From Deltaproteobacteria bacterium (GTDB taxonomy: Bacteria; Desulfobacterota; Desulfobulbia; Desulfobulbales; SURF-16): a DNA stretch of 52,998 nucleotides. The DNA lies in contig JACQYM010000061.1 in the NCBI GenBank assembly GCA_016208225.1, forward strand, positions 1-52,998, written 5' to 3'. The translations under genes and the position numbers were made by a program. How positions within the stretch are numbered: position 1 is the first letter of the stretch; each line of letters starts with the position of its first letter. Of this stretch, positions 1,419 through 41,727 are shown in pieces. The notes under the pieces are model-generated. The model had not been told where the DNA came from. It searched no databases and was given only the letters and a program-made list of their open reading frames with translations.

Positions 1419-1552
1419 CGTAAACGAGTCACGAACTGAATAGCCGGGAATAGTAAACCGGATCGCGGATAGCTCTGGGGATTTTCAAAAATGAGACCTT
1501 CCCGGCGACGCCAGGTGTCGCAAAAATGGCTTTTTCTACAGACTCGTTGTGC
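1419..1552 (+). repeat. attC-like site 0 (integron cassette recombination site)
   Basis: Imperfect palindrome with AAC...GTT polarity. CGTAAAC-GAGTC (1419-1430) pairs with GACTC-GTTGTGC (1541-1552). Internal hairpin GGCGAC/GTCGC at 1505-1520. Length 134 bp. The motif after its R'' box (AACGAGTCA) is shared with site 1. Confidence 0.6.
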
Positions 1553-1561
1553 TGAAATAAT

Positions 1562-2359
1562 ATGAACGATAATAAATTGGCAAAGAATAAAATTATCAAT
1601 ATCATTGGCGCAGCATTTCTCACTTTTTTAATGCTCGGCCTTGGCCAGATATCATGTGGCAAAATTAAACGCGGAATAATTATCTATTTCGCAAGTTTTC
1701 TGCTCGCCGCCATCGCTGTATTCATTTGCACCAAACCGTTTCCTCCCTTTAACATCCTAATTCCTGCCATTATATTTATCGGCCTTTATGTTTTTGCCAT
1801 CGTTGATGCCATTCTCATTGCCCGAGATCCAGAAAATACTCTCAGGCTAAAACCAATAGTTGGATATCTTATTCAGGCATACAAAATTCCGTCAGGAGCA
1901 ATGATTCCAACACTTTTAATCGGTGACCAGATACTTGTTGATAAGCATATATACAAAAATAAGGAACTGTCCCGTGGGGACATTGTGATATTTCCTTATC
2001 CTGTTAAGCCTGAGCAGGATTTTATTAAAAGAGTTGTGGCATTGGGCGGAGATACTTTTGAAATAAAGGGAAAACAAACTTACCTAAACGGCAAGCTTTT
2101 GCAAGAACCTTATGCAATCCATAAAGACCCCAAAATTTTTCCCGCAGAAGAAAACCAAAGAGATTTTTATGGCCCAATAACGGTCCCCACTGATTCAGTG
2201 TTTGTTATGGGGGACAATCGAGACAATGCTTATGATAGTCGTTTTTGGGGGGTAGTCAAAAAAGACACAATTAAAGCCAAAATAATCAATATCTATTGGT
2301 CCTGGGACAAAGAGGCTGGTTCTGTCAGATGGTACAGGATCGGAAAGCAAATTTTGTGA
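1562..2359 (+). CDS. Signal peptidase I (S26)-like membrane protein with the conserved box B and box E Ser residues replaced by Ala; cassette-encoded
   Basis: 265 aa. S26 boxes present: KIPSGAMIPTLLIGD, GDIVIF, FIKRVVALGGD, VMGDNRDNAYDSRFWG. The N-terminal ~100 aa has about 3 hydrophobic helices. AT-rich codon usage, unlike the backbone. Confidence 0.85.
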   Translation: MNDNKLAKNKIINIIGAAFLTFLMLGLGQISCGKIKRGIIIYFASFLLAAIAVFICTKPFPPFNILIPAIIFIGLYVFAIVDAILIARDPENTLRLKPIVGYLIQAYKIPSGAMIPTLLIGDQILVDKHIYKNKELSRGDIVIFPYPVKPEQDFIKRVVALGGDTFEIKGKQTYLNGKLLQEPYAIHKDPKIFPAEENQRDFYGPITVPTDSVFVMGDNRDNAYDSRFWGVVKKDTIKAKIINIYWSWDKEAGSVRWYRIGKQIL

Positions 2360-2385
2360 ACTAACCAATTGAAAATACATTGAAA

Positions 2386-2475
2386 GCACAACGAGTCAAT
2401 TCAGGCGACGGGAAGGGACTCGGGGGCGCTGACGCGGCAAGGCTTTTGGCCCGCGCCTGATTTCTGCCGTTCGCT
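2386..2475 (+). repeat. attC-like site 1
   Basis: Starts with GCACAAC (2386-2392), the exact reverse complement of GTTGTGC (1546-1552) that opens this cassette. TCAGGCG(A)CGGG 2401-2412 pairs with CCCGCGCCTGA 2450-2460. Ends with GTTCGCT 2469-2475. Length 90 bp. A GC-rich island in AT-rich DNA. Confidence 0.7.
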
Positions 2476-2488
2476 TCCAAATAATAAA

Positions 2489-2517
2489 TTGACTGACGTA
2501 ACCCAAAGGGTTACAAT
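2489..2517 (+). promoter_or_regulatory. Sigma-70 type promoter of higBA with overlapping palindromic operator
   Basis: TTGACT (2489-2494), 17 nt spacer, TACAAT (2512-2517). The perfect palindrome GTAACCC-AAA-GGGTTAC (2498-2514) lies inside the spacer and -10 element. The higB ATG is at 2524, 7 nt after the -10, with no Shine-Dalgarno. Confidence 0.6.
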
Positions 2518-2523
2518 TAATAC

Positions 2524-2802
2524 ATGATCAAGTCATTTAAGCATAAAGGTCTGGAGCAGTTTTTTTACACCGGCACCAAGAAAGGCATAAAGCCGGAACA
2601 TGCTGGAAAGCTGGAAAGAATATTGGACCGATTAAATGCGGCAAATGATTTAAAAGATATGAATTATCCAGGATCAAACCTGCACGCGCTGAGTGGAGAC
2701 CGTAAAGGTCAGTATTCAGTAAAGGTTTCTGGTAATTGGCGTGTAATTTTCGAATTCGAAAATGGTGACGCCTATATTGTCGATTACGACGATTATCATT
2801 AA
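2524..2802 (+). CDS. higB: HigB toxin (RelE/ParE superfamily, plasmid maintenance system killer type)
   Basis: 92 aa. MIKSFKHKGLEQFF...GIKPEHAGKLERILDRLNAA...LHALSGDRKGQYSVKVSGNWRVIFEFENGDAYIVDYDDYH is the classic HigB pattern. Toxin-first order, followed by an HTH antitoxin. Confidence 0.9.
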   Translation: MIKSFKHKGLEQFFYTGTKKGIKPEHAGKLERILDRLNAANDLKDMNYPGSNLHALSGDRKGQYSVKVSGNWRVIFEFENGDAYIVDYDDYH

Positions 2803-2817
2803 AAAAGGAGGTGGCTC

Positions 2818-3132
2818 ATGGCTACTATGAAAAGACAACCCACCCATCCAGGCAATATACTGAAGGAAGATTATCTTATACCACTATCAATTACTATTCA
2901 GGATATGTCATCAATTCTTGGAGTTTCAAGGAAAACCCTATCAAAAATCATCAACTGTCGCGGCTCTGTTACGCCTGACATGGCTTTGCGGTTATCTCGT
3001 GCTTTTGATACAACGCCTGAACTTTGGCTGAATCTCCAGAAAAATTATGATCTTTGGCATGCAGCACATGATTCAGAATCTTGGAAAAACGTAAAACCAA
3101 TTTTCCATTCCACTATGCCAAATCATATATAA
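2818..3132 (+). CDS. higA: HigA antitoxin (XRE-type HTH)
   Basis: 104 aa. HPGNILKEDYL...GVSRKTLSKIINCRGSVTPDMALRLSRAFDTTPELWLNLQKNYDLW matches the HigA family pattern. Strong RBS AAGGAGG at 2804-2810. Confidence 0.9.
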   Translation: MATMKRQPTHPGNILKEDYLIPLSITIQDMSSILGVSRKTLSKIINCRGSVTPDMALRLSRAFDTTPELWLNLQKNYDLWHAAHDSESWKNVKPIFHSTMPNHI

Positions 3133-3136
3133 ATAA

Positions 3137-3264
3137 AGCGAACAAGCGCATGAAGAGGGACCGGCGAGCACCGGGCTCCATCGTGCAGTTGCAACATTGT
3201 CAATCCCGGCCAGGTGAGTGCAACTCCACCGCCGGCCCCTTTGCAAAGCGTTTAGCGGTTAAAA
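3137..3264 (+). repeat. attC-like site 2
   Basis: Starts with AGCGAAC (3137-3143), the exact reverse complement of GTTCGCT (2469-2475) that opens this cassette. AGGGACCGGCG 3156-3166 pairs with CGCCGGCCCCT 3230-3240. The 3' core is either GTTTAGC (3250-3256) or GTTAAAA (3258-3264). About 120-128 bp. Confidence 0.7.
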
Positions 3265-3279
3265 AAGCGGGGCACTCAA

Positions 3280-3750
3280 ATGTCTCTGTCAGTAAAATTA
3301 AACGATATCATTAACGAAATGGAAATCCAATCTAATGACCATTCATACTATCTCAACAAAAAAACAGGTGAGATTGTAATGGTCACTGATGAGCATTTTT
3401 CCTTAGCCGATGATAGTGAAGACATTTCTCATTATTCGGACTGGGAGCAAGAAGCTATTCGCGTAGCAATCAATGTGCTTGAATCAGAAGAAAATTTTAT
3501 TCCATTGCCTTCCAAATTTGACATACATGAGTATCAAATCATGGAAGATTTTTGCCTTTCCCTGGATGACGAGAATTTGAGGGGCAAAATGTATCGCTCA
3601 GTCAAAGGCTCAGGCGCTTTCCGAAGATTCAAGGACAGCATTTTTGAATATGGTATTGAAAAAAATTGGTTCCAACATCGCAGAGAAGCGTTCAAACGTA
3701 TAGCTGTTGATTGGTGTGAGGGAAACGACATTCCATACACAGAGGAATGA
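3280..3750 (+). CDS. UPF0158 family protein (function unknown), cassette-encoded
   Basis: 156 aa, acidic. The pattern ...IPLPSKFDIHEYQIMEDFC...LRGKMYRSVKGSGAFRRFKDSI...W...R resembles the UPF0158 family as I remember it. AT-rich. Confidence 0.7.
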   Translation: MSLSVKLNDIINEMEIQSNDHSYYLNKKTGEIVMVTDEHFSLADDSEDISHYSDWEQEAIRVAINVLESEENFIPLPSKFDIHEYQIMEDFCLSLDDENLRGKMYRSVKGSGAFRRFKDSIFEYGIEKNWFQHRREAFKRIAVDWCEGNDIPYTEE

Positions 3751-3842
3751 AACGCCTGGGGGCATAGGGACATCCTTAATATTTTAAGCGCCCGCAGGCA
3801 CATCCCGCCAGATCTCACACCAGCCAGTCCCCGGCGTCTCTG
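3747..3842 (+). repeat. attC-like site 3 (left arm convincing, right arm tentative)
   Basis: The left arm ATGAAAC-GCCTGGGGGCATAGGGAC is homologous to the left arm of site 2 (AAC-AAGCGCATGAAGAGGGAC). GAAACGCC 3749-3756 pairs 7/8 with GGCGTCTC 3833-3840, and GGGAC 3767-3771 pairs with GTCCC 3827-3831. The 3' core is GTC rather than GTT, and the right arm overlaps the last codons of the minus-strand DUF4143 remnant. Confidence 0.4.
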
Positions 3843-4348
3843 CTGAAAAAATCGGCCAGCGGAATGCCCGGTCCGCCTGCCAGCAGGGCGCGGGCCTCGG
3901 GGTAGCGGGCGCGGAAGCGGCTCAGGCCGGAGGTCTTGGCGCTTCTGCCGCTTTTTACCTCGATGGCCCAGATGTCGTTTCCCCTGGCGACTACGAAATC
4001 CACCTCATGGTCCCTTTCCCGCCAATAGGTGACGGTATATTCCACCGAATTGAGGCTGTTGCACAGATGGCCGCCCACCGCGTTTTCCACCAGCCGTCCC
4101 CACCAGATCGTGTCACCCAGGGCATCGGTAAAATTCCGGGTGGAAAGGGCGTTCACCAGGGCATTGTTCCACAGCACCAGCTTGGGGCTGCTGCCGCGCT
4201 TGCGTTGTCGGCCCCGTGAAAAGAGTTCCAGGCCGCTGGCCAGGAAGGCGGCCTCCAGCAGTTTCAGGTAGTGGGCGAGGGTGGGTGTTCCCGTGCAGCC
4301 GGCACCCTGCTCATAAGCTGCCGGCGTTGCCGGGTTATGGATTCCGGC
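3815..4348 (-). pseudogene. C-terminal remnant of a DUF4143-type AAA+ ATPase (N-terminal roughly two thirds missing)
   Basis: The frame is open from 4348 down to the stop at 3815. It reads ...TPTLAHYLKLLEAAFLASGLELFSRGRQRKRGSSPKLVLWNNALVNAL...WRERDHEVDFVVARGNDIWAIEVKSGR, which is the DUF4143 C-terminal region. No Walker A/B part and no plausible start upstream; TGA at 4349-4351. Confidence 0.7.
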
Positions 4349-4747: not shown

Positions 4748-6488
4748 TTATTCCCTAACCTCGAAAACCAGCTTTTCCGCCGAGATGTTGTTGTGTACAT
4801 CGGTAGTCTGCACGCGCACCTGATGCGAACCCGGCGTCAGGTCGTCCGGCACGGCGCAGGTCCAGACATGGGTTGAGCCGGTGGTCTGCAGAAATGTCGG
4901 CAGGGGCTGGGGCGGCGCCGGTAACTGCGTGCCGTTCCACAGGGTGAAGCCGTCCGTGTAGCGGAAGACGTAGGCCTGGGTGCGCAGGGCGAACGGATCG
5001 GCTGTGTTTTGGTCCCGCAGTGCCGGTTCCGGCAGGCGGTCGTCATACTGGCAGGTGACCTGGGAGGCGGTGGAGCCGTTCCAGACATTGGCCACCAGGG
5101 CCAGGTTCGGGCTGGTCAGATCCTCCGGGGTCAGCACCCGCTGATCGCCCAGATCATGCAGGGTGACGGGAGGGGCTGCCGGCCGCGTGGCGGGATCGCT
5201 GTTCTGCCAGGTGCGCAGCGCCTCATACCAGGCGAGAAACGAATCGGTGCGCAGGGAAAGATTCATCTGCCTGTCCGCGGCCAGCCCTGAGGCCTTAAAG
5301 CTGTCCGTATACTGGTTGCCGTTGAACTCGATGATCATATGGCCTTTGGGGCCGCCGTCGCGCTGGTAGGAAAAGGGCACGCCGGCGTCGGTGAAATCGC
5401 CGCTCCACCAGGAACCGCAGGAAGCGCCGACAATGATCTGGCTAATGGGGGTCGGCTGGCCCCAGCCCTCTTCCTCATCGCCGGGCTGGAAATGTTCCAG
5501 GGTGTGGGTGTGGCCCCCCCAGGGACAGCACCCGGCGGCCGGCCAGCAGCTCGTAGATCTCCTCGCGGTTGTTCACCTGGTGGTTGGCGGCCAGCCGGTC
5601 GATATAGGAAACCAGGGGGATATGCATGTTGAGCACGATCAGCCGGTCCTTCGGCACCTGGCGCAGGTCGTTGATCAGCCACTGCATTTGGGCGTCGTCA
5701 ATCTCGCCGTGGTAGCTTGATGAAAGCGTGGAGGGGTAGACGATGGAGTCCAGCACCACGAAGTGGACCCGGCCGTAATTGAACGAATAGTAGGCCGGCC
5801 CGTACTGGCTCTTGAAGGTGTCGAGGGAATGGGCGTCGTCCGGGGCGTCCAGGTTCATGTCATGGTTGCCGGCCGTCAGGTAGTAGGGGATGCCCAGCTC
5901 CTTCATGACCGAGATAAAGCGGGGGTAGAGCGAGAGTTTGTCGCCGATGTTGTCGCCCAGGGTGACGGCCACCACGGCGTCGCTCTCCGCCACTTCCTTG
6001 ACCGTGGTGTCGCGGAAATAGGCAAGCTCGGTGTCGTTGTATACTTGGGTATCGCCCAAAAAGACGGCCTTGAAGGAATCGGATTCACGCACTTTGTGCA
6101 GGGGGAAATCGATGCTGGCCGGCAGCGGGCCGGTGGGCGCAAGCCCTGGATACTGCTGGATCTCCGGCGGCGAGCCTGCCGGCTGGTGGATGTAAAAGAA
6201 ACGGGGGATATTGTTTTCGCCGAGCGGCGGGGCATAGCCCGCCGGCTTGCTGACAAATACCGCCATCTCGTCATAGGCGGGCAGGGTATAGCGGCCCTGG
6301 CCGTTGGTCTGCACCACTTCATGACTGTTGGATACGCTGACTCCGGCGATACCGGGCTCTCCTTTTTCCCGTAAGCCGTTGCCGTTTTTGTCCCAGAAAA
6401 CCGTACCGCTGATGTCCTGGGCCGCCGCGGCGAGCGAAACATTGCCCAGCAGCAGGGCGGCGCAGGTGATAATGGTTGCCTTGTTCAT
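4748..6488 (-). pseudogene. Secreted calcineurin-like metallophosphoesterase, reading frame broken at a G7 run (C7 on + strand, 5514-5520)
   Basis: Signal peptide MNKATIITCAALLLGNVSLAAAAQ. Motifs GDTQ, GDNIGD and GNHD are in ORF 5475-6605. After SLGG the frame is lost. Removing one G restores GGHTHTLEHFQPGDEEEGW...VPFSYQRDGGPKGHMIIEF, which runs straight into ORF 4748-5380. ATG at 6488 with AGGAGAG upstream. Confidence 0.8.
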
Positions 6489-7091
6489 TTTCTCTCTCCT
6501 TGTCTGTTGGTGATGGTGGTTTGCACCCGGTGCACGATGCGGACAGAGGGCCCTTCCGCCGGTATCATCTGCAGGGCGCGCCACCGTTTTTCCTGTCTCA
6601 CGCATGTTGCGGCTCCATCCCGGGAAAATGATGCCGAGTGCGCGGGAAAGTTAGTAAAAATTTAAAGGTCGTATGTTAGGATTTGATAAATGAAGGGATA
6701 AAAAAAGGATAGCAGGCGGTTATCATTTCATGAGCGGTTGGTTAGCCGCGGCATATCATCCCCGGAAAACCGCGGGTCCCATTTGACGGCCGGCCAGGGC
6801 ACCAGATAAAAGAAAAAGAGCAAACAAGGGTGAAAATGTTGATTTCTTACCAAAAAATGCCAAATTTTTCTGGTGTATAGCCCCCCTGTCCTTTACAATT
6901 ATTTCCGGGGCGTCTTGAAAAGTTGGTGGAAGTTGGCATATCCGATGAGCCGTTGTAAAAAAATACTGCAACATCCCATGCGATGCCCGACATAGGGGCG
7001 GTTACGAAATGATGCAAACTGTGATGGTTATTTTGTAACGGCCTCAACAAATCGCCTTACTGATAAGTTGGAAAAAAGAAATTTTCATTTC

Positions 7092-8558
7092 ATGACTGAT
7101 GCCAGTTTGCATAACAAGGGAAAACTTGCGGACATTTTTGCCAGAATCAACATGAGTGAACTTCCCGCCATGTCTGTGCATGTGCAGGAACTCCTTGCCC
7201 TTACCGGCAGCAAAAAAAGCCAAAGCGCAAACTATGATGATCTGGCCCGGATCATTCTGAAGGATTTTTCCCTTACCCACAAAGTTCTGCAGATTGCCAA
7301 TTCGGCCTACTACGCCCTGGGGCAGAAAGTTTCAACGGTTTCCATGGCCGTGGCCGTGCTCGGTTTTGATACGGTGCGGGACCTGGCCATCGGCATCGCC
7401 CTGCTGGACGATTTTATGAAGGCCGGAGTCAATACCGAGGAGATCGGCAAACTTCTGGCCCGTTCATTCATGGCGGCCTTGCTGGCCCGCAGCATTGCGG
7501 AGTCCAGATATCTGAAGGTGCTGCCGGAAGAGGCGTTTATCTGCGGCCTCATGCACGATCTCGGCCGGGTCATTTCCTGCATCTATCTGCCCGTCATGTA
7601 TCGGGCCATCCATGAGAAGACCGGCAGCGGGATGACGGAGGAGGAGGCGGCCATGTCGGTTCTCGACGGCCTGACCTACGCCGGCGTCGGCCGCGAGGTT
7701 GCTATTTTCTGGAATATGACGGAAAGTGTGATAAAGTGTATGGAGCCTGATCCCGCTCTGCCGGAAGAGGCGCGCGATGCGGAAAAATATCTGCACGGTA
7801 TCGTTGATTTCAGCAACCGTTATGTTGACTGTCTGTTGCGGCAGCAGAATATTGCGCCATTGATGGACAAGTATGCCTTCCCGCTTTCTCTTGACGAGGA
7901 AGAGGCGGTGGAGATGCTGACTGACGCCACCAGGGCATCCGAGGCGATTTTTGACTCCATCCGACCGGAGATACTCAAATTTGATTTCTGCAAACGGCTT
8001 GAGGAAATCCAGGCCCTGTATGCGGCGGAGGAGCCTGTTGCGCCGGTAAAGGGCGTAAAAAAAGATTTTTGGCAGGAAATCACGAACATGGTAAAGGGTG
8101 ATTTCCGGCTTAATGATTTTTTCGTGCTGCTGCTGGACGCCCTCTGGCAAGGGATCGGTTTTGACCGGGCGGTTTTTGCCATGATCCAGAACCGGGGCGA
8201 CGACAAGGTGCTGGTCGGTCAGCTGGGCCGCGGCGATATTTCCCCGGCCCAGGTGAAAAAATTTGAACTGGTTCTTTCCCGCGCCTTGCCTGACGTGCTG
8301 CAGAAATCCTTGTCCATGGGGCGGGACATCGCTCTCGGTTCAGATAAGGTTGCCGTGCTGCCGGAAGAACTGCAGTATCTTGCGCAGGAACGGACGGTCT
8401 ATCTTTTTCCCCTGTGTCTCAAGGGAAAAGGAGTCGCCCTGCTCTATCTCGACAGAACAAAAGAAAAGCCGAAGCTGCAGAAGGATGAAGTTGAGGATGT
8501 CAGAAAGCTGAGGGATTTTGCCGCAATGACAATTGAAATGAAACGAAAAAAAGAATAG
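7092..8558 (+). CDS. HDOD domain protein with C-terminal GAF-like domain (paralog of 38113-39630)
   Basis: LPAMSVHVQELLAL...ILKDFSLTHKVLQIANSAYYALGQKVSTVSMAVAVLGFDTVRDLA...GLMHDLGRV is an HDOD signature. The C-terminus reads FDRAVFAMI...TVYLFPLCLKGKGVALLYLDR. Start set at ATG 7092 by alignment with the paralog; the TTG at 7068 is the ORF-track start. Confidence 0.85.
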   Translation: MTDASLHNKGKLADIFARINMSELPAMSVHVQELLALTGSKKSQSANYDDLARIILKDFSLTHKVLQIANSAYYALGQKVSTVSMAVAVLGFDTVRDLAIGIALLDDFMKAGVNTEEIGKLLARSFMAALLARSIAESRYLKVLPEEAFICGLMHDLGRVISCIYLPVMYRAIHEKTGSGMTEEEAAMSVLDGLTYAGVGREVAIFWNMTESVIKCMEPDPALPEEARDAEKYLHGIVDFSNRYVDCLLRQQNIAPLMDKYAFPLSLDEEEAVEMLTDATRASEAIFDSIRPEILKFDFCKRLEEIQALYAAEEPVAPVKGVKKDFWQEITNMVKGDFRLNDFFVLLLDALWQGIGFDRAVFAMIQNRGDDKVLVGQLGRGDISPAQVKKFELVLSRALPDVLQKSLSMGRDIALGSDKVAVLPEELQYLAQERTVYLFPLCLKGKGVALLYLDRTKEKPKLQKDEVEDVRKLRDFAAMTIEMKRKKE

Positions 8559-10742: not shown

Positions 10743-11879
10743 TCAATACATCTCGTCCGGACTTTCGTTCTGCAGCTCGGCCATGCTCAGCTTCCTGCTG
10801 TCCATCTGCTTCCAGACATAGGCGATATAGGCCAGCACAAAGGGAACGGTCAAGGCCACATAGGTCATGGCCGTCAGGGTGTAATGGCTGCTTGAGGCAT
10901 TGAAGATGGTCAGGCTGCTCTGCGGATCAAAAGTCGACGGGTAAAAGGCCGTATTGTTGAAGCCGGCCAGGAAAAAAACGGCCAGGCCGACCAGGACGGT
11001 GCCGATGCCGGCATACCAGATGCCGCAGTTTTTGGCCTTGAAACGGGTGAGCACCACCCCGTAGATAACCAGGACCAGACCAAGAAGAAGCAGGAGCAGG
11101 GTCACCGGGTTGCCGAACAGGTTGCGCAGGTATTTGCCGTTCTGCAGAAAGATCTCGCCGGTGTCCGGATTAACGGCATGGCCCGGCATGAACAGCAGGT
11201 TGACCAGGACAAAGAGCAGGAAGGGCAGGGACCAGAGGAAGCTCTTCCAGCATGATTGCCGGCAGCGGTCGGTCAAAGGCTTATGGTCAATATTGTTGAC
11301 CAGGTACATGGCGCCGAGCGCCCGGGCGTTGAAAACCAGAAAGAGGCCCAGGGAAAGATTGAAAAAGTTTCTGGCCGCCTCCAGGCCCCGATAGGGGGTC
11401 TGCCAGGTTACCTGGTTATACTCGTTCAGGGAGAAGCTGGAGCCGGTGAAAAAGGTGCCGACCGCGGCGCCGATGAGCAGAATGCCGACACTGCCGTTGA
11501 TGAACAGAAAAGACTCATAGGTGGCGGCGCCGAGAAAATTGTTCGGTTTTTTCCGGTACTCGTAGCTGACGGCCTGAATAATAAAGGTGAACAGGATGAG
11601 CATCCACACCCAGTAGGCGCCGCCGAAGCTGGTGGCATAAAATTTGGGAAAGGCGGCAAACAGCGCCCCGCCGAACAGCACCAGGGTGGTAAAGGTCAAT
11701 TCCCATTTGCGGCCGAGGGAGTTGATGATCAGCGCCTTTTCCTCATCCCCCCTGGGCACGGTGAAGAGCAGGGTCTGTCCGCCCTGGACAAAGGTGAGGA
11801 AAAGAAAGAGGGAGCCGACCAGGGAGGCGATGATCCACCAGATGGCCTGCAGGGTCGAATAATCAAGATTTCCGATCAT
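10743..11879 (-). CDS. cydB: Cytochrome bd ubiquinol oxidase subunit II
   Basis: 378 aa polytopic protein immediately downstream of cydA (1-nt gap), with a typical CydB N-terminus (LQAIWWIIASLVGSLFLFLTFVQGG). Confidence 0.9.
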   Translation of the reverse strand: MIGNLDYSTLQAIWWIIASLVGSLFLFLTFVQGGQTLLFTVPRGDEEKALIINSLGRKWELTFTTLVLFGGALFAAFPKFYATSFGGAYWVWMLILFTFIIQAVSYEYRKKPNNFLGAATYESFLFINGSVGILLIGAAVGTFFTGSSFSLNEYNQVTWQTPYRGLEAARNFFNLSLGLFLVFNARALGAMYLVNNIDHKPLTDRCRQSCWKSFLWSLPFLLFVLVNLLFMPGHAVNPDTGEIFLQNGKYLRNLFGNPVTLLLLLLGLVLVIYGVVLTRFKAKNCGIWYAGIGTVLVGLAVFFLAGFNNTAFYPSTFDPQSSLTIFNASSSHYTLTAMTYVALTVPFVLAYIAYVWKQMDSRKLSMAELQNESPDEMY

Positions 11880-11880
11880 G

Positions 11881-13416
11881 TTAGTTTTCCTCCGGTCCGA
11901 TGTTGATCTGTTTCAGCATGATGCTGATCTCGGCAATCATCAGCAGGGTAAAGAGGCCGAGAAAGACAAAGAACGTGGTCTGGACGGCGCCGGTGCTGAG
12001 CCTGGTGTTGGCCACGGTGACCGGCAGCAGTCCCTGGATGGCCCATGGCTGCCGGCCGACCTCGGCCAGCACCCAGCCGGCCTGGGAGGAAATGTAGCCC
12101 AGGGGAATGCAGAAGAGGCCGAGGACCTGCAGCCAGCGCTGATAGTCCAGGGTGCCCCTGGCCTGAAAATAGAGAAAAAGGAGAAAAACAAGCGGGAAAA
12201 TCGCGCCGGTGATGACCATGATATGAAAGGCGTAAAAGGTGATGCCGACAGGAGGCACGGCTTCGGCAGGCGCGCGCAGATAACCGTAGCCCAGATGGTC
12301 GGCAAAGTCCTGGAAATCTTTCAAAGTCGTCTCAGCCAGGGCGGTATTGCCTGCTTTGCGCGCCTCCTTGTAGGTACGCAGCAGTTCCACCGCGATCCTG
12401 CCCTTTTCAATCCGTTCAACGGCGCCCATGATATTGTGCTCCTTGTTGCCGAATACCAGGTCATTGATCCCCGGCACAAAAGAGCCGATTTCCCGGTTGG
12501 CCAGCAGCGACAGCAGGCCCGGAATCTTGATCTCCATGCCACACGGCTGCTGGTTGTCGCCTGGCTTCTTGGCGCTGTTGATCAGACCGGCGGCAACGAG
12601 CGGGGCGTTGGTCTGGCCGTCGAACAGGCCCTCCATGGCCGCAAGCTTCATGGGTTGCCGCTGGGCGACGCTGTAAGCCGCCTCATCACCGGTAAAACCG
12701 ACATAGGCGGCGGAAAGCAGGCCGAACACCGAGGCGACGATAATGCTTCTTCTGGCCATGGTCTGATGCCTCTCCTGCAGGAGATACCAGGAGGAGACGC
12801 CGACGACGAAAAGCGAGGCCAGCAGAAAGCCGGAGCTGGTGGCATGGGTGAATTTGCTGATGGCCACCGGCGAGAAGAGGATATCCCAGAAATTGTGCAT
12901 TTCAAAGCGGGCGGTGTCCGGATTGAATTTCATGCCGACCGGGAACTGCATCCAGCCGTTGGCCACGAGAATCCACAGGGCCGAAAGATTGGAGCCGATG
13001 GCCACCATCCAGGTGGAGAAGAGATGAAAGCCTTTGGAAACCCTGTTCCAGCCGAAGAACATGACGGCAAAAAAGGTGGCTTCCAGGAAAAAGGCGAAGA
13101 TGCCTTCAACCGCCAGGGGGGCGCCGAAGATATCACCCACCATCCAGGAGTAATTTGACCAGTTGGTGCCGAATTCAAATTCCAGAATGATGCCGGTGGC
13201 AACGCCGATGGCAAAGTTGATGCCGAACAGCGTCATCCAGAATTTGGTAAGCCGTTTCCACTCTTCATTTGCCGTGCGCACGTAAATGCTCTCAAAGAAC
13301 GCCACCAGAAAGGAGAGTCCCAGGGTAAGCGGGACAAAAATCCAGTGGTACATGGCGGTGAGAGCAAATTGGGCGCGGGCCCAGTTGACCTGCGACAGAT
13401 CGATTTGTTCAACCAT
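11881..13416 (-). CDS. cydA: Cytochrome bd ubiquinol oxidase subunit I
   Basis: 511 aa. LSQVNWARAQFALTAMYHWIFVPLTLGL..., GAPLAVEGIFAFFLEATF and the EVGRQPW motif near the C-terminus are characteristic of CydA. Confidence 0.95.
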   Translation of the reverse strand: MVEQIDLSQVNWARAQFALTAMYHWIFVPLTLGLSFLVAFFESIYVRTANEEWKRLTKFWMTLFGINFAIGVATGIILEFEFGTNWSNYSWMVGDIFGAPLAVEGIFAFFLEATFFAVMFFGWNRVSKGFHLFSTWMVAIGSNLSALWILVANGWMQFPVGMKFNPDTARFEMHNFWDILFSPVAISKFTHATSSGFLLASLFVVGVSSWYLLQERHQTMARRSIIVASVFGLLSAAYVGFTGDEAAYSVAQRQPMKLAAMEGLFDGQTNAPLVAAGLINSAKKPGDNQQPCGMEIKIPGLLSLLANREIGSFVPGINDLVFGNKEHNIMGAVERIEKGRIAVELLRTYKEARKAGNTALAETTLKDFQDFADHLGYGYLRAPAEAVPPVGITFYAFHIMVITGAIFPLVFLLFLYFQARGTLDYQRWLQVLGLFCIPLGYISSQAGWVLAEVGRQPWAIQGLLPVTVANTRLSTGAVQTTFFVFLGLFTLLMIAEISIMLKQINIGPEEN

Positions 13417-13434
13417 TTATAACCTCCGCTGTTT

Positions 13435-13773
13435 CTAGTTTAGATTCCAAGTCGCCTTCAACCCAATACCTTTGTCGGCTGCGCTGTGCGGCTCCTCGCC
13501 GTACTCCATGTACTGTCTCGTCGCTGCGCGCTTGCCTTCGCGGTCTTGGGCCGAATACAACTTGGAATGGGGGAGCCGGGTGATGTTTTCCAACACATGG
13601 CCGGCCCTCTCCTCATCATTTGTAAAATGTGTTTCCAGATAGTTGGGGAAAAAAAAGAGCTTGAGTATGGCAAACATGACAAACAGTTTAATGAAAATAA
13701 TCACCCACAGGCGGCGACCTGTTTTCATGGACCTGAATCCATCGATATAGAAGAGAAGAATTCGTTTAAGCAT
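13435..13773 (-). CDS. DUF4492-like small membrane protein at the head of the cyd operon
   Basis: MLKRILLFYIDGFRSMKTGRRLWVIIFIKLFVMFAILKLFFFPNYL matches my memory of the DUF4492 proteins found upstream of cydA in Bacteroidetes. The C-terminal ~45 aa extension is non-conserved-looking. Confidence 0.6.
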   Translation of the reverse strand: MLKRILLFYIDGFRSMKTGRRLWVIIFIKLFVMFAILKLFFFPNYLETHFTNDEERAGHVLENITRLPHSKLYSAQDREGKRAATRQYMEYGEEPHSAADKGIGLKATWNLN

Positions 13774-13967
13774 CTTATTAATTGATAATAGTTATTAAAG
13801 TGTAAGAGAAACTATTAAAAATCAACCGGCTTGTCAAGTAGAATCCTATTTCAGCAATAAAAAAGTCAAGAAAAAAAATAGGATAAAGCGTTTTGACCGG
13901 GGCGTTGCCCGCCGGCGGCGGGAGGGAGAAAAGGGAAAAGCGATGCTGCAACGGTGTGCAGGCAGTG

Positions 13968-14945
13968 CTATCCTTCGATGGTGTATTCCTTGATCTTGTA
14001 GAGGAGGGCGGGCAGGCTGATTTCGAGCAGGGATGCAGCCTTGGTCTTGTTGCCTTTCGTCTCGGCCATGGCTTTGGTGATCAGTTGTTTTTCCAGCTTC
14101 TTGGAGTTGCTCTTGATGGAAAATTCGTCCCAGAAAAAAACGTCGTCGCGCACCGGGCCGCTGCTTTGCCGCAAGAGTTCAGGGGGAAGGATTTCCATGG
14201 TCAATATATCCTTTTCAGCCAGCACCATGCTCCGTTCCACCACATTTTCCAGCTCGCGGACATTGCCGGGCCAGTTGTAATTCATCAGCCGCTGCAGGCA
14301 GTCGGCATGCACTTCCCGGATGTTCAGGCCGAGGCGCTGATTGTACTTCTGCACAAAATGCTCAGCCAGCAGCGGAATATCCTCCCGGCGGTCGCGCAGG
14401 GGCGGCATCTCGATGGTCAGCACGTTGATCCGGTAGAAGAGGTCTTCGCGGAACAGGCCCTTGTTCACCATATCCCCGAGATTTCTGGCCGTGGCCGTGA
14501 TGATGCGGACATCGACCTTGACCGTCTTGCTGTCGCCCAGGGGGCGGATCTCGTCTTCCTGCAGAGCGCGCAGCAGCTTGACCTGCAGGGACAGGGGCAG
14601 CTCGCCCATCTCGTCCAGAAAAAGGGTGCCGCCGTCCGCCTCTTCAAAAAGCCCCTTTTTCACCCGGTAGGCATCGGTGAAGGCCCCCTTGACGTGGCCG
14701 AACAGCTCGCTTTCAAGCAGGGTTTCCGGGATGCCGCCGCAATTGACGGCAATCATCGGGTTGTTGGCGCGGCCGCTGTTATAGTGGATGGCCTTGGCGA
14801 TCAGCTCCTTTCCCGTGCCGGATTCACCGGTGATCAGGATGGAGGTTTTAAAATCGGCAATTTTCCGGATCGTCTGGAAAATTGCCTGCATTTTGTGGCT
14901 TCTGGCGATGATGTTCGCGAAGCTGTATTGGCGAGGGGCATCCAT
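13968..14945 (-). CDS. Sigma-54-dependent transcriptional activator, AAA+ plus Fis-type HTH only (no N-terminal sensory domain)
   Basis: Walker A GESGTGKELIAKAIH, GHVKGAFTDA loop (GAFTGA variant), Walker B GTLFLDEMGEL, RIITATARNL, WPGNVRELENVVER. C-terminal HTH: KGNKTKAASLLEISLPALLYKIKEY. The AAA+ core begins about 10 aa after Met1. Confidence 0.9.
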   Translation of the reverse strand: MDAPRQYSFANIIARSHKMQAIFQTIRKIADFKTSILITGESGTGKELIAKAIHYNSGRANNPMIAVNCGGIPETLLESELFGHVKGAFTDAYRVKKGLFEEADGGTLFLDEMGELPLSLQVKLLRALQEDEIRPLGDSKTVKVDVRIITATARNLGDMVNKGLFREDLFYRINVLTIEMPPLRDRREDIPLLAEHFVQKYNQRLGLNIREVHADCLQRLMNYNWPGNVRELENVVERSMVLAEKDILTMEILPPELLRQSSGPVRDDVFFWDEFSIKSNSKKLEKQLITKAMAETKGNKTKAASLLEISLPALLYKIKEYTIEG

Positions 14946-19944: not shown

Positions 19945-21951
19945 TTACATGCGGATCGTGCTGGTGGCCAGGGTGCCGAGGAATGCTTCCACCACATCCG
20001 GATCAAACTGACGGCCCGCCTCGTTTTTCAGCAGATCCACCACCTTGTCCTCAATCCACCCCTGCCGGTACGGCCGGCTTGAGATCAGGGCATCATACAC
20101 ATCGGCAACGGCGAGAATGCGGGCACTGATGTCGATTGCCGTGCCGGCGAGGCCCAGCGGATAGCCTTTGCCGTCATATCGTTCATGGTGCTGGAGGACC
20201 ATGGGGATGATATCGGCATAGGCGTTGATCGGTTCGAGAATCTTGGCGCCGATGGCGGAATGGTCCTTGACCTTGGCATACTCCTCTTCGGTCAGTTTAT
20301 CCGGTTTGTCGAGGATGGCCAGCGGCACGCCGATCTTGCCGATATCGTGCAGCAGTCCTCCCCGGTAGAGCGTTTGCACCTGTTTGTCATCCCATCCCAT
20401 GGTTGTCGCGATTTTAACGGCCATTTCCGCCACCCGTTCCGAATGGCCGGAGGTCCAGGATGATTTCGCATCAACGGTGCGGGCCAGGGCCTCAATGGTG
20501 CCCAGGGTAAGATGCTCCATGTCCTCGATGAGCCGGGCGTTGGACAGGGCCACGGCCAGCTGGTCGGCGAGGTGGCGGGCCTGCAGCAGCTGTTCCTCGG
20601 CAAGCGGCCGCTGTCCGGTGGTGCCCAGGGTCACAAAACCGGCCAGCCTGCTTTTCAGAAATACCGGCAGGAGATGGAAGGTGTCCATGCCCTTGTCGGT
20701 AAAGGCTGCCAGGTGGGCCGGGGTTGTTTCCGGTCTGTCGCACAACAGAGATTGGCTGGTGCCGGCCAGCAGCCGGGCCTCATCCCCGGAGATTTTGATG
20801 GTCTCCATGGCCGGTTTTTCCTGCTGGTGTTTTTGCAGGGAAAAAAGCTGGGCGGTATTTTCCTGCAGCGGGTTGATCAGGCTGAAAGCGACGAGGTCGC
20901 AGTCGAACAGATCGTGCATGTGGGTAAGGGCGGTGTTGATGATTTCGAGTTCCTCAAACTCATCCCCGCTGTTCACCGTCACCCGGCTGAGGAAATCATG
21001 CCTGGCCACGCGCCGGGTCCCTTCGGTCAAGACCTCCACGGGCGCCAGGGTGCGTCTGATATAGATCAGGCTGAGAAGCAGCACGATCCACAGGGAGAGG
21101 AGCACCACCAGCGGGAAAATCTTTTTGAAATGGGCAAGGGGGGCAAGGACTTCGGTTTTAGACTGTCCGAGCACAATCATCCAGGGCTGGGAGAAAAATT
21201 TTGATTTGAGGAAGATGGACCAGTAGCTGGCCAGATATGTTGCGTTGTTGCGCTGGTATTCAAACTGACGGGATACTTCCCCATCCTGCCGGAAGGCCAC
21301 CATGTGGGCCATATTTTCCGGGACCGGATGGGAGCTGACCAGTATTCTTTTGGTCATGTCCAGGACAAAAAGTTCGGTCTGGGAGGGCAGGAAATTCTCA
21401 AAGCCGATGCCCCATACATACGAAGGGATGATCTCGCCGTACAGCAGCTGTTGTTCCTCCGTGCCTGCCTGAAACGGTTTGATGATGAAGAGGCGCGCCG
21501 GCTGATCGGCCTGGGGCTGGGCGACGATGACGGTCTTGCCTTTAACGAGATTCTCCTTTTCAATCGGGACAAGCTCGGGGGGATCAACTATCCGGTCGCC
21601 GAGAATGGGGGTAAAGCCCGCACCGGCGCTGAACCGGCTGATGGCCTTAAAGCGCTGCTTGAGCCGCTCCCCGAAATGGTCGGATGCATTGCTTTGCAAT
21701 CCCGCGATCCGGGCATGGGCGGTCAGCACCTCCAGGTCGGTATCAAGCAGCAGGAGCCGTTCGTACACGGACATGCCATAGGCTTTGGTCTCTTCCTGCA
21801 GCCGTTTGTGACTTTGGAGCGCAAGCTGACGGGTGACCTGATTAAAGGAAAGGATGGTCAAAGCAATCATGGGCAGCAGCGCACAGCAGATAAACAACAG
21901 GAAAAAACGGCGTGCGACTTTGCTGCGAAGAAAACCAGAGGTAAAATTCAT
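19945..21951 (-). CDS. Membrane sensor HD-GYP phosphodiesterase (periplasmic sensor, HAMP, GAF, HD-GYP)
   Basis: Two TM segments flank a ~260 aa extracytoplasmic region, followed by a HAMP-like segment. The C-terminus reads HSERVAEMAVKIA...GGLLHDIGKIGVP...HHERYDGKGYPLGL, the HD-GYP signature. Confidence 0.9.
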   Translation of the reverse strand: MNFTSGFLRSKVARRFFLLFICCALLPMIALTILSFNQVTRQLALQSHKRLQEETKAYGMSVYERLLLLDTDLEVLTAHARIAGLQSNASDHFGERLKQRFKAISRFSAGAGFTPILGDRIVDPPELVPIEKENLVKGKTVIVAQPQADQPARLFIIKPFQAGTEEQQLLYGEIIPSYVWGIGFENFLPSQTELFVLDMTKRILVSSHPVPENMAHMVAFRQDGEVSRQFEYQRNNATYLASYWSIFLKSKFFSQPWMIVLGQSKTEVLAPLAHFKKIFPLVVLLSLWIVLLLSLIYIRRTLAPVEVLTEGTRRVARHDFLSRVTVNSGDEFEELEIINTALTHMHDLFDCDLVAFSLINPLQENTAQLFSLQKHQQEKPAMETIKISGDEARLLAGTSQSLLCDRPETTPAHLAAFTDKGMDTFHLLPVFLKSRLAGFVTLGTTGQRPLAEEQLLQARHLADQLAVALSNARLIEDMEHLTLGTIEALARTVDAKSSWTSGHSERVAEMAVKIATTMGWDDKQVQTLYRGGLLHDIGKIGVPLAILDKPDKLTEEEYAKVKDHSAIGAKILEPINAYADIIPMVLQHHERYDGKGYPLGLAGTAIDISARILAVADVYDALISSRPYRQGWIEDKVVDLLKNEAGRQFDPDVVEAFLGTLATSTIRM

Positions 21952-31371: not shown

Positions 31372-32358
31372 TCATTCCTTTCTGGTGCTGCGGGGGTGGA
31401 ATTTGCGGTGTACGGCCTGCAGGCGGCCGGTGTCCACATGGGTGTAGATCTGGGTGGTGGCGATGTCGGCGTGGCCCAGCATGAGCTGCACGGATCTGAG
31501 GTCGGCGCCCTGGGCCAGCAGGTGGGTGGCAAAGGAGTGGCGCAGCATGTGGGGGCTGATTTTTTTGGCAATGCCGGCGGCGTAGGCCGTTTCCTGGATA
31601 ATCTGCCAGAAGCGGAGCCTGGTCATGGCTGTGCCCCGGCTGGTGACAAACATGGCCCTGCTTTTTTTCGCCTTGAGCAGCCGGCCCCTGCTGTGCTGCA
31701 GATAGAGGAGCAGTTTGTCCTTGGCTTCCTCGCCAAAGGGGACAAGCCGTTCCTTGGTTCCCTTGCCGAGCACCCGGACAAAGCCGGCGTTCAGGTTGAG
31801 GGCCGCCAGCGGCAGGGTGACCAGTTCGGAGACGCGCATGCCGGTCGCGTACAGCAGATGCAGCATGGCGGTGTTGCGCAGGGTGAGATCCGTTTTTTCT
31901 CCCGGGCCGGCCAGGAGCATGTCCACCTCGGCGACCGAGAGGTCAGTGGGCAGGGAGCGGCCGCTTTTAGGGATGTCGAGGATGCAGGTCGGGTCCTGGC
32001 CGATGATTTTTTCGGCCAGCAGGAAACGGAAAAAGCTTCTGAGGCAGGAAAGACGCCGGGCGTTGCTGCGGTTGGCGATGCCGTTTTTTTTACAGGCGGC
32101 AAAAAAGTCGCGGATATGGTCCGGGCCCGTATGTGGCAGGGAGATCTTTATTCTGGCCAGAAAGGAAAGAAAGGCGCCGAGATCCGCCTGGTAGGAGCGA
32201 ATCGTGTTGTCTGAAAGTCTTTTTTCCGCGGCGAGATAATGGAGAAACAGATCCTGGCAATGAAGCATTTCCGCTGGAAGACTCATGCCAGGAACCCTGT
32301 TCCGGTATCGGTGCGCAGTGCTTGAATGAGGCTGAATGTTTCCCCGTTTGTTTGTCAT
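31372..32358 (-). CDS. xerD: Tyrosine site-specific recombinase XerD (XerC not excluded); start may be ATG 32286
   Basis: [23 protein letters not shown]...; catalytic region [39 protein letters not shown]. Confidence 0.8.
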
Positions 32359-38112: not shown

Positions 38113-39630
38113 TTATCCTTTTCTGCTGCTTTTCTTGATTGCCATGGCCGCGAAATCACGAAACAGACTCAGGGCCTTGATGCTGTTTTTGTTCAGTTTC
38201 GGTCTGCCCGTTTTGCGGTCCATATAAAGCAGGGCGATGGCCTTATTGTTGACAACGATCGGGAAGAGGTAAACGGTTCTGTCTTTGACGAGATAATGGA
38301 TATTGTCCGGAAAAGCCCTGGTGGTATCGGCTTCTATGGCAATATCCTTGCACAGCTTCATGGCGCGCGGGATGGCCTGGTCCGCATTGGACATCGGCTG
38401 TTCAAAATTGCTGATATCCGCGGCATCAATGTCGCCCAGGCCAAAGCGGCCGGTCAGCACGGTTCTGGTGGCCTGGATGCTCAGCACGCACAGAATGACC
38501 CGGTCAAAGCCGATGCCCCGGTAAATGGCTTCGAGCAGGTTGGCATAAAATTCATTGAGCTGAAAGGGTCCCATCAGCGTCTCGGTCATCTCCATGATGA
38601 ACTGGTTGATGGACTTGTCGGTGGAAGGCAGCTCGCCCAGTTCCTCCACTTCCTGCCATCCCTGCTTTGTCCCGTCCGCCCGCATTTCTTCCTGCCCCGG
38701 GGGGATGGGCTCAAATCTGGCGGCCTTTTCCAGTTTGCTGTGGATTTTCAGTTTCGACAGGCCGTAGCGGATGGAGTCGGAGATGTCCTGGGATGCCTCC
38801 ACGCCTTTATGCAGGAGAGCCAGGGCCTGTTCCTGATTGATGGCGATGATCTCTCCGTACCTGCCCAGCAGTTCGCTGGTATCTTCCTCGTTGCAGACCA
38901 TGTCGACAAAGCGGTTGCTGAAATCGGCGAGGTTCTGCAGGTAGCCTTCCGAGTCGTAACTGTTTTTGGGCTTGGCCGGGTGAATGTCCATGGAGATGAC
39001 GATCTTGTGTGAGAGATTCCAGAATTTGGCAATCTCCTGGCCCAGATCGGCAAAGGTCAGATTTTCGAGCAGTTCCCGGGTCGCCGTTTCCTCCGGGATG
39101 CCTTTGGCCAGGCTGCTTTCTATCTTTTTATAGATATCGGGCATGTAGATGAAGGTGATAATCTTGCCCAGATTGTGGAGAAGCCCGCAGATAAAGGCCT
39201 CTTCCGGCAGCACGTTCAGTTTTTTTTCGTTGACCAGGTCCCGGCACTGCAGGGCGCTGAGAAAGGAGCGGGTCATCAGCTTGCTGATGCCTTCTTTTTC
39301 GACCCCCGCCTTGATGAAATTTTCAAAAATGGCGATGCCGGTGGCCAGGTCCCGCACCGCGTCAAAGCCGAGAATGGTGACCGCCTTGGAAATGGAGCTG
39401 ACCGGTTGGCCCAGCGAGTAATAGGCGGAATTGACCACCTGCAGGACCTTGTTGGTCAGGGAATAGTCTTTCAGGATGACGCGTGACAGGTCGTAGGATG
39501 TGCTGCGGCTGCTGTGTACCAGAGAGATGAGCTCCTGCACGTGGCTTGACATGGCGGGCAGCGCGTTGATGTTCATCTTGGCAAAGATTTCCGCCAGTTT
39601 CCCTGATGCGGGGTTTTTTGATTCCGTCAT
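38113..39630 (-). CDS. HDOD domain protein with C-terminal GAF-like domain (paralog of 7092-8558)
   Basis: LPAMSSHVQELISL...ILKDYSLTNKVLQVVNSAYYSLGQPVSSISKAVTILGFDAVRDLA...GLLHNLGKI. The C-terminus reads FDRVILCVL...TVYLFPIVVNNKAIALLYMDR. Collinear with the 7092 protein along its full length. Confidence 0.85.
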   Translation of the reverse strand: MTESKNPASGKLAEIFAKMNINALPAMSSHVQELISLVHSSRSTSYDLSRVILKDYSLTNKVLQVVNSAYYSLGQPVSSISKAVTILGFDAVRDLATGIAIFENFIKAGVEKEGISKLMTRSFLSALQCRDLVNEKKLNVLPEEAFICGLLHNLGKIITFIYMPDIYKKIESSLAKGIPEETATRELLENLTFADLGQEIAKFWNLSHKIVISMDIHPAKPKNSYDSEGYLQNLADFSNRFVDMVCNEEDTSELLGRYGEIIAINQEQALALLHKGVEASQDISDSIRYGLSKLKIHSKLEKAARFEPIPPGQEEMRADGTKQGWQEVEELGELPSTDKSINQFIMEMTETLMGPFQLNEFYANLLEAIYRGIGFDRVILCVLSIQATRTVLTGRFGLGDIDAADISNFEQPMSNADQAIPRAMKLCKDIAIEADTTRAFPDNIHYLVKDRTVYLFPIVVNNKAIALLYMDRKTGRPKLNKNSIKALSLFRDFAAMAIKKSSRKG

Positions 39631-40912: not shown

Positions 40913-41674
40913 ATGGCTGTTTGGGCGATTAAGCTGCATGACAAGGTTGTGAAGCAGTTTGCGATTGATGAGGGGGAACGGTTGGTCATCGGCCGCAGTT
41001 CCGAAGCGGATGTGGTTGTTGATAATACGGCCATATCCCGCAAGCATACGGCTCTTGAAAGAAGGAACGGCGTCTATTTCCTGGAGGACCTCGGCAGTCT
41101 GAACGGCACCATGGTCAACGGCAAAAAGATAGATTCCTGCGTGCAGCTTTTTGATGAAGATGTGGTCGAGATCGGCAAATTTCTGCTGATTCGGGCCGAG
41201 GCGTTGAAAGATGCCAAGTTCTCGTCCCAGAGCGCGCCGCTGGATTATGGCGATGAAACGGTTTTCGTCAAGCGGGATGCCGGGGCCGCGGAGAAGGCCA
41301 GGGAAAAGGTGAAGGCCCTCCACAGCCTGACCGTGATCAAAGGGGCGGGCAGCCCGGCGGATGTGCCGCTGCATGGCCGGAGCAGCGTCAAAATCGGCAA
41401 GGACATCAATTGCGATCTGCGGATCTCCGGCTGGTTTGTGGCCCAGGCCCAGTGCTATGTCATTAACCGGGACAAGAAGTTTTATCTCGTGCCGCAGCGC
41501 AGCTGGGTGAAGACCAGCGTGAACGGCATGCCGGTCAAGGAGGAGCGGGAACTGAACAAGGGGGATGTCATTGAAATCCGCGGAGTGCAGATCCGTTTTG
41601 TCTGGCCGCCATGCCTGTCATGCCTTTTCATTGAAATATCGAGAGACTGCAGCAATGACGCTGCAACCCTGTGA
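40913..41674 (+). CDS. Tandem FHA-domain protein
   Basis: FHA 1: LVIGRSSEADVVVDNTAISRKHTAL...DLGSLNGTMVNGKKI. FHA 2: VKIGKDINCDLRISGWFVAQAQCYV...TSVNGMPV...GDVIEIRGVQIRF. Confidence 0.85.
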   Translation: MAVWAIKLHDKVVKQFAIDEGERLVIGRSSEADVVVDNTAISRKHTALERRNGVYFLEDLGSLNGTMVNGKKIDSCVQLFDEDVVEIGKFLLIRAEALKDAKFSSQSAPLDYGDETVFVKRDAGAAEKAREKVKALHSLTVIKGAGSPADVPLHGRSSVKIGKDINCDLRISGWFVAQAQCYVINRDKKFYLVPQRSWVKTSVNGMPVKEERELNKGDVIEIRGVQIRFVWPPCLSCLFIEISRDCSNDAATL

Positions 41675-41727
41675 TCGCGGGCTTTCCGGCAGCGAGCACG
41701 GTTTTCACTGTTTGCGGGATAGGAACC

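Follow-up and report, generated by a model that had tools for sequence, protein, structure and literature searches.

The contig JACQYM010000061.1, a stretch of 52,998 nucleotides from a Desulfobulbales-type genome (hereafter the window), carries near its left end one open reading frame (ORF) for a LepB-like protein of peptidase family S26, the only S26 ORF in its 53 kb. Judged from its residues at the active site (Ala113, Lys156, and Ala223), the protein is on balance probably a pseudo-signal-peptidase, which would bind peptides and would not cleave them. We propose that the promoterless integron cassette in which it resides carries a single gene from a mobile family of LepB-derived paralogues. 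The ORF and the domain on which this interpretation turns are as follows.

1562-2359, plus strand: LepB-like S26 ORF of 265 amino acids, identified by its matches to Peptidase_S26 and TIGR02227 and by alignment with LepB
1871-2356, plus strand: compact S26 catalytic-type domain, residues 104-265, delimited by LepB alignment, comparison within the clade, and Foldseek

The product of ORF 1562-2359 matched Pfam Peptidase_S26 (PF10502) with 142 bits and an E value of 2.3e-41, above the cut-off of 22.9, and NCBIfam TIGR02227, bacterial type I signal peptidase, with 143.5 bits, above the cut-off of 47. The match to TIGR02771 TraF was weak and below threshold, at 39.5 bits (cut-off 100). A sequence-only reading of this DNA had recognized a signal peptidase I homologue from its conserved boxes, and both profile scores bear this out. 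Boxes B-E, the residues of the S1/S3 pockets, and the C-terminal YWSWD...RIG are common to the window protein and canonical LepB, and the cleft residues at LepB positions 84, 86, 91, 95, 101, 132, 142, and 144 appeared, from the aligned sequences, to be conserved or conservatively replaced. AlphaFold2 (AF2) modeled the S26 fold confidently, with a predicted local distance difference test score (pLDDT) of 87.5 for the window protein and 89.9 for a full-length homologue (P0003). When the model of this homologue was submitted to Foldseek, E. coli LepB (1t7d) was found with an E value of 4e-11 and SipA (4n31) with a template modeling score of 0.77.

In LepB, Ser90 is the nucleophile, Lys145 is the general base, and Ser278 positions the lysine. 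The HMMER alignment of the window protein to the sequences of the E. coli LepB crystal structures had no gaps across box B, where 'ipsgAMiPtl' of the window pairs with 'ipsgSMmPtl' of LepB, or across box E, where 'GDNRDNaYDSR' pairs with 'GDNRDNsaDSR'. As the box B alignment is gapless, a misalignment concealing the serine is ruled out. Ala113 falls in the nucleophile column, on Ser90, and its codon GCA lies at 1898-1900, one position before the coordinates 1899-1901 given by the sequence-only reading. Ala223 falls in the column of Ser278, with the codon GCT at 2228-2230 in the motif GDNRDNAYDSR. The replacement of both serines by alanine, which had been proposed at the outset, was thus upheld, and so was the retention of the box D lysine, since Lys156 in FIKRVVA aligns with the general base Lys145. 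The oxyanion-hole serine was also retained (Ser111, corresponding to LepB Ser88), and R157, G217-D218-N219-R220, D225, and R227 were further conserved residues. Tabulated for both serine positions, as the sequence-only reading had envisaged, the homologues showed alanine at the Ser90 column in 77 of the 120 closest, and an independent copy of the gene at locus L001, 92.5% identical in amino acid sequence, has the same GCA codon. Loss of Ser278, as Ala278, was confined to the subclade of the window protein.

The protein search yielded more than 7,600 relatives, the best 120 of which align over the full length, and a library-wide HMMER search gave 544 cluster representatives at E <= 1e-30. When the S26 domain was compared with the housekeeping LepB of Desulfobacterales, Syntrophales, Geobacter, and Nitrospirota, identity was about 50%, and the family appears to be derived from the LepB of Desulfobacterota and Nitrospirota. 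In 153 of 225 relatives with a long N-terminus, the dyad was broken: Ser90 only was gone in 118, Lys145 only in 23, and both in 12. Canonical LepB proteins of the same phyla differ in this respect, with SGSM/K/S kept in 71 of 72 loci, and also in their short N-terminus with one or two transmembrane (TM) helices; compared with them, the window protein has Ala at the positions of Ser90 and Ser278, an added three-helix module, and no anchor helix. On a rough neighbour-joining tree, the dyad states were clearly scattered among close relatives, and the dyad had to be broken or restored approximately 54 times, residue 90 having changed about 40 times and residue 145 about 28 times.

The closest clade (P0001-P0031, at least 47% identical) shows the same lability on a smaller scale. 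Ser90 or Lys145 was missing from 30 of its 31 members, P0021 alone having both; Ser90 was replaced by A, D, G, or T, and Lys145 by R, M, E, or N. Even among the sisters of the window subclade there are proteins without Lys145, namely P0013 with Arg and P0016 with Met. Residues I86, M91, P93, R146, G272, D273, N274, and R282 were invariant in all 31 members, and T94, L95, I144, R275, and D280 were conserved in nearly all. Between the window gene and the L001 copy, the ratio of nonsynonymous to synonymous substitution rates (dN/dS) was 0.156, indicating that the S26 gene is maintained by purifying selection. The best-supported interpretation of these sequences is that in this family the fold and the S1/S3 peptide-binding pockets would be under selection, and the Ser/Lys dyad would be evolutionarily dispensable.

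The sequence-only reading had posed a dichotomy between a catalytically dead protein and an enzyme with a shifted nucleophile. This framing was apt. For the window protein the non-catalytic side is favored, because 30 of the 31 members of the closest clade have broken dyads with many different substitutions, and Ser278 has been lost too. Full-length members of the family, consisting of a DUF5683-like three-helix module, a LepB-type anchor helix, and a compact S26 domain, would be anchored on the outside of the cytoplasmic membrane and would bind exported preproteins around their cleavage site, or a ligand mimicking that region, without hydrolysis. Such peptide binding without cleavage is what is thought to occur with Streptococcus SipA and Staphylococcus SpsA. 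Such a binder could serve as a holdase for certain exported proteins, as a trap, or as an inhibitor decoy. In the window allele, from which the anchor helix is gone, the S26 domain would be cytoplasmic or misassembled, and this copy is likely impaired.

Both precedents, which are inactive and retain the peptide cleft, resemble the window protein in part. In SipA the Ser/Lys dyad is gone and the peptide-binding cleft is kept (PMC4049620), and SpsA lacks both catalytic residues, has no peptidase activity, and is suspected to bind peptides or proteins (PMC12414704). S. pyogenes SipA/LepA (PDB 4n31, 4k8w), a pilus assembly factor, has the compact S26 fold in common with the window protein; besides the structural likeness of the homologue model mentioned above, there is a sequence match with an E value of 0.003, and the Asp that SipA has in place of Ser90 recurs in some proteins closely related to that of the window. 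Unlike SipA, which is anchored by one TM helix, is missing both Ser and Lys, and is encoded in a Gram-positive pilus/sortase operon, the window protein retains its Lys, begins with a polytopic DUF5683-like region, and comes from a Desulfobacterota integron cassette without pilin or sortase neighbours. S. aureus SpsA, the inactive paralogue of SpsB, is likewise an S26 paralogue with an incomplete dyad, but its gene is immobile, with a fixed place on the chromosome next to the active spsB, and the protein has a single TM helix and replacements of both dyad residues. S26 proteins on mobile DNA are also represented by the Bacillus plasmid protein SipP and the conjugative TraF (S26C), which are plasmid-borne, keep the dyad, and are active. 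They resemble the window protein as S26 accessory genes on mobile DNA, but they are not integron cassettes.

ORF 1562-2359 lies in a genuine single-gene integron cassette, which is part of an array.

1419-1552, plus strand: attC-like site of the preceding cassette (sequence reading, copy comparison, and folding as single-stranded DNA)
1547-2469, plus strand: S26 integron gene cassette of 923 bp, with one ORF and its own attC (border complementarity and copies)
2386-2475, plus strand: attC of the S26 cassette (sequence reading, inverted repeat, and folding)
2470-3250, plus strand: HigB/HigA cassette, with the HigB toxin at 2524-2802 and the HigA antitoxin at 2818-3132
3251-3800, plus strand: third cassette, with a UPF0158 protein at 3280-3750 and a degenerate attC-like 3' end

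The preceding attC-like site has the boxes R'' CGTAAAC (1419-1425) and R' GTTGTGC (1546-1552), and its outer stems pair when it is folded as single-stranded DNA. The recombination point, between G and TT at 1546/1547, is the left border of the S26 cassette, whose first bases are TTGTGC; the S26 ATG stands 15 nt after this border and 9 nt 3' of the GTTGTGC box. At the other end, 26 nt past the stop codon, the cassette's own attC begins with R'' GCACAAC (2386-2392), continues through the L''/L' arms AATTCAGGCG and CGCCTGATTT, and ends with R' GTTCGCT (2469-2475), forming an imperfect inverted repeat. The 5' GTTGTGC of the cassette exactly complements its R'' GCACAAC, and the same rule holds in the window and at loci L001 and L089. 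In the HigB/HigA cassette, similarly, the 5' GTTCGCT complements R'' AGCGAAC (3137-3143), followed by R' GTTTAGC (3250-3256). This second cassette has a promoter-like site just inside its border (TTGACT-17-TACAAT, 2489-2517), but the S26 cassette showed no promoter-like site of its own and no recognizable Shine-Dalgarno sequence before the ORF. The GC content of the three cassettes was about 40%, compared with 55-65% in the host DNA, and judged from its RadA the host genome is Desulfobulbales-like.

Copies of the S26 cassette are present in two further arrays, at L001 and at L089 (64% amino acid identity), with different flanks, and in both cases the homology to the window cassette begins exactly at the GTTGTGC box. 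Paired boxes, complementary borders, and these copies with different neighbours substantiate the mobile, single-gene cassette that the sequence-only reading had described, and the L001 and L089 copies answer positively whether homologues recur in integron cassettes. Only the units in the window, L001, and L089 are called cassettes here; at L090, L093, and L095, attC-like sequences were recognized by eye only. Because the folding energies of the attC sites were only weakly better than those of shuffled sequences (z -0.2 to -1.8), the cassette call relies on border complementarity and the comparison of copies. A home-made attC scanner found no site at all with a strict consensus, not even the proven one, and with a relaxed consensus it did not separate the family loci from canonical lepB loci. 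When L001 10805-10925 was compared with window 2360-2480, the two were homologous through R'' GCACAAC and then diverged completely. The two copies therefore have different attC bodies, which suggests exchange at the R'' side and would be unexpected if a cassette always moved with its own attC.

No integron integrase (IntI) and attI were seen next to the array. In a motif scan, the only tyrosine-recombinase-like ORF of the window, at 31372-32358 on the minus strand and 29 kb from the array, proved XerD-like, and with its HMLRHSFA motif it resembles XerC/XerD more than an integron integrase. The array has either been truncated or is an attC cluster that lacks an integrase. On its left, an insertion sequence (IS) transposase (DDE_Tnp_1_6 / DDE_Tnp_1) occupies positions 1-1362 and runs off the contig end; it is broken by an in-frame TAA at 403-405 into two ORFs, 88-405 and 406-1362. 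This degraded IS was probably inserted into the cassette array or borders it, and it is the likely reason that the assembly stops at this contig end. On the right, the array is adjoined by a truncated DUF4143 ATPase gene, a C-terminal fragment at 3815-4177 on the minus strand, which suggests that the array was inserted into this gene or truncated it.

The part of the protein in front of the S26 domain sets the family apart from LepB, and it is also where the window copy departs from its relatives.

1562-1825, plus strand: N-terminal three-helix membrane module, residues 1-88 (AF2 helices, invariant residues, and profile search)
1870-1871, plus strand: junction of a 75-bp in-frame deletion, between L103 and I104 (copy comparison, spacing, and model)

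AF2 placed helices at residues 3-23, 27-31, 35-56, and 63-88 of the window protein. The module carries a GLGQ-x-x-x-G-x4-G motif, and the GLGQISCGKIKRG motif is present; G26, G33, and the intramembrane Asp82 are invariant in the family. A profile of the module retrieved many proteins of 76-110 amino acids annotated as PF18935, with E values of 1e-10 to 1e-5, and the direct Pfam score to PF18935 was weak, at best 17 bits against a cut-off of 26.7, on the N-terminus of a relative. By these profile comparisons, the module appears to be related to the DUF5683 (PF18935) or 'TM2 YozV'-type small membrane proteins, with which it has the motif GxGQ/H-x-Y-x-G in common, although DUF5683 and 'TM2 domain YozV' proteins are stand-alone or fused to zinc ribbons. 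Six proteins of 120-145 amino acids, P0389-P0391 and P0402-P0404, consist of the four-helix N-terminal part only, and some of them are labeled 'signal peptidase I' at source. They may be parts of split genes, products of truncated calls, or a version of the membrane module that exists on its own.

The sequence-only reading had described three TM helices and a motif in the N-terminal extension. Both are present, but three helices are peculiar to the window copy, and all the homologues have four. The homologues are about 285-290 residues long, and relative to them the window protein is without exactly 25 residues between ...KPIVGYL and IQAYKIPSGAM, a deletion of 75 bp that is clean and in frame relative to L001. 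In the AF2 model of the full-length homologue, helices at 5-23, 27-31, 35-56, 63-87, and 98-127 are followed by the S26 beta domain, and the deleted segment makes up most of the last of these. This fourth helix, directly before the S26 domain, is the LepB-type anchor and is absent from the window copy. The spacing between Asp82 and the Ser90 column was 50-61 residues in 192 of 196 relatives, and a spacing of 31 was found in the window protein only.

In the relatives, the loop before helix 4 is strongly positive, with 4-8 Lys/Arg, which suggests that it is cytoplasmic. Helix 4 should then bring the S26 domain to the outer side, and in the window protein the domain is probably on the wrong, cytoplasmic side of the membrane or misassembled, as read from hydropathy and charge. 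With its anchor helix deleted, the window allele is a doubtful representative of the family, and it is probably an impaired, damaged copy of an otherwise well-maintained mobile subfamily.

A stronger version of this view, in which the window allele is a decaying, non-functional cassette and a pseudogene in the making, is a serious possibility, if short of an even chance. The 75-bp deletion was unique among the 196 relatives, and model confidence was lost at the junction: the predicted template modeling score fell from 0.81 in the full-length homologue to 0.65 in the window protein, and residues 95-103 had a pLDDT below 50, with both flanking domains still confident. The setting is consistent with decay as well: the cassette has neither a promoter nor a Shine-Dalgarno sequence of its own, a degraded IS lies between it and the contig end, and no integrase was seen for the array. 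However, the window ORF is open throughout its 265 codons, and the deletion, which preserves the frame exactly, has left the domains on its two sides whole. The dN/dS of 0.156 also shows no relaxation, although it averages both lineages.

For the family at large, the main challenge to a non-cleaving peptide binder is an active peptidase in which Ser111, at the position of LepB Ser88, attacks the scissile bond with Lys156 as the base, either Ser88 or Ser90 being usable across the family. Several observations weigh against our preferred interpretation here. Ser or Thr at position 88 was kept in 129 of the 131 members without Ser90, and it was lost in 39 of the 103 members with Ser90 (Fisher p = 3e-14, kinship ignored), a pattern that spans about 40 and about 30 independent changes on the tree. 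Hydroxyls at 88 and 90 are thus almost never both absent, which constitutes a covariation rule. Lys145 was kept in 118 of 130 Ser90-less members (91%) compared with 76% of the Ser90-bearing ones (p = 0.003). Among 50%-identity representatives, the Ser90-less proteins with Lys145 had an active-site region at least as well conserved (mean entropy 1.18) as those with an intact dyad (1.32), and proteins without Lys145 were more relaxed, at 1.47. Only small residues (A, G, T, D, and N) replace Ser90. The Ser90-less proteins also show what would be expected of a working Ser88/Lys145 enzyme. In addition, the relatives were sampled in order of their similarity to a query without Ser90 and the statistics ignore phylogeny, the topology was drawn from hydropathy and charge, and neither a partner nor a substrate nor a conserved neighbour came to light, which makes any biological role a guess.

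Nevertheless, the S90A variant of E. coli LepB has no activity, even with Ser88 and Lys145 in place. Within the clade of the window protein, Lys145 was lost repeatedly, Ser90 was changed to Asp as in the inactive SipA, and the window subclade is also without Ser278. The statistics on the 88/90 pattern are subject to the same neglect of phylogeny, and the pattern can be explained by a binding role for one hydroxyl and the Lys; a substrate trap that needs both to hold the P1 carbonyl predicts it equally well. We therefore regard a relocated nucleophile as rather unlikely for the window protein, whose loss of Ser278 and of the anchor helix makes it a weaker candidate. For the SGAM/Lys/Ser278 members at large, it is somewhat more likely, and at the level of the family the 88/90 rule and the greater retention of Lys145 in Ser90-less members give real and unforeseen support to the shift that the sequence-only reading had offered as its second option. 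If true, the 'SGAM + Lys' proteins would be a natural case of nucleophile relocation in a Ser/Lys dyad protease.

Whether they are non-cleaving binders or relocated enzymes, these proteins extend what is known of the S26 family. Inactive signal-peptidase homologues have been known only as isolated cases, SipA and SpsA, and these two were also all that was found in the literature on cassette-borne or naturally Ser-less type I signal peptidases. The subfamily is previously undescribed, as no description was found in the searchable literature. It adds a large, mobile, integron-carried family of S26 homologues, with dozens of apparently independent losses of Ser90 or Lys145, a strictly conserved peptide-binding groove, and the 88/90 covariation rule. 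Two questions become testable with it: whether an oxyanion-hole serine can become the nucleophile in a Ser/Lys protease, and what selectable function a non-cleaving binder of signal peptides may have. A defined recurrent family is also added to the mostly unannotated environmental integron cassettes, in Desulfobacterota and Nitrospirota.

The genomic settings of the relatives are diverse. Integron arrays are the setting in the window, L001, and L089. At L002, the gene lies in an island with GmrSD, HEPN, Tle1-like, and patatin genes, and at L004 it is flanked by IS110 copies and a group II intron. At L090, L093, and L095, it belongs to a series of small genes that point in one direction and are accompanied by attC-like sequences, and at L005 and L088 it is found at contig ends beside housekeeping genes. 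No adjoining lepA, rnc, pilus/sortase genes, or second S26 gene was found in the window or ten related loci. There was no conserved operon partner either, since unrelated genes precede the S26 homologue in L001 and in L002. At a distance of two or three genes on the upstream side, L001 (7266-8936) and L002 (5382-6578) each have a GmrSD_N (DUF262) gene; the architectures of the two genes differ and the intervening genes are non-homologous, and their presence near both loci may be a coincidence within cassette and island cargo. At L093, a Gabija-like pair (AAA_15/OLD-TOPRIM, then a UvrD-type helicase, 11060-14855) belongs to the same co-directional run as the S26 member, and at L095 an Imm8 immunity-like gene is directly downstream of the S26 gene.

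Such surroundings bear on the idea that the cassette protein is a decoy used in defence, which traps preproteins of phages or competitors or soaks up signal-peptidase inhibitors such as arylomycin-like lipopeptides and beta-lactam-type compounds. A function of this kind would be selectable and would explain the spread by integrons. Family cassettes do sit among toxin-antitoxin cassettes and GmrSD, HEPN, Gabija-like, and Imm8 genes, the pockets that bind arylomycin in LepB are conserved, and the repeated independent inactivation could reflect selection for non-cleaving binders. However, no PADLOC model matched, the neighbouring genes are not homologous between loci, and proximity weighs little, since toxin-antitoxin and defence cassettes are generally common in integron arrays. 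PHROG gave a single match, to a family of unknown function. With neither a PADLOC match nor a conserved partner gene, the decoy, inhibitor, sensor, or phage-defence role put forward in the sequence-only reading was unsupported, and we consider it improbable.

Least credible of all is that a sequencing or assembly error created the Ala codon, the deletion, or both: although the contig comes from a single metagenome assembly and its protein cluster has one member, an error behind Ala113 is rejected because the independent L001 copy shares the GCA codon and Ala is the majority state among relatives, and the deletion comprises exactly 25 codons with clean flanks.

Beyond the cassette array, a calcineurin-like metallophosphatase is encoded on the minus strand at 4748-6605 in two ORFs, 5475-6605 with MetallophosN and Metallophos and 4748-5380 with MetallophosC, and this split may be a frameshift or a pseudogene. 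The window also contains three HDOD/HD-GYP-type signaling proteins (7068-8558, 19945-21951, and 38113-39630), which are joined by a Ser/Thr kinase (41671-43083), so that signaling genes are unusually dense for 53 kb.

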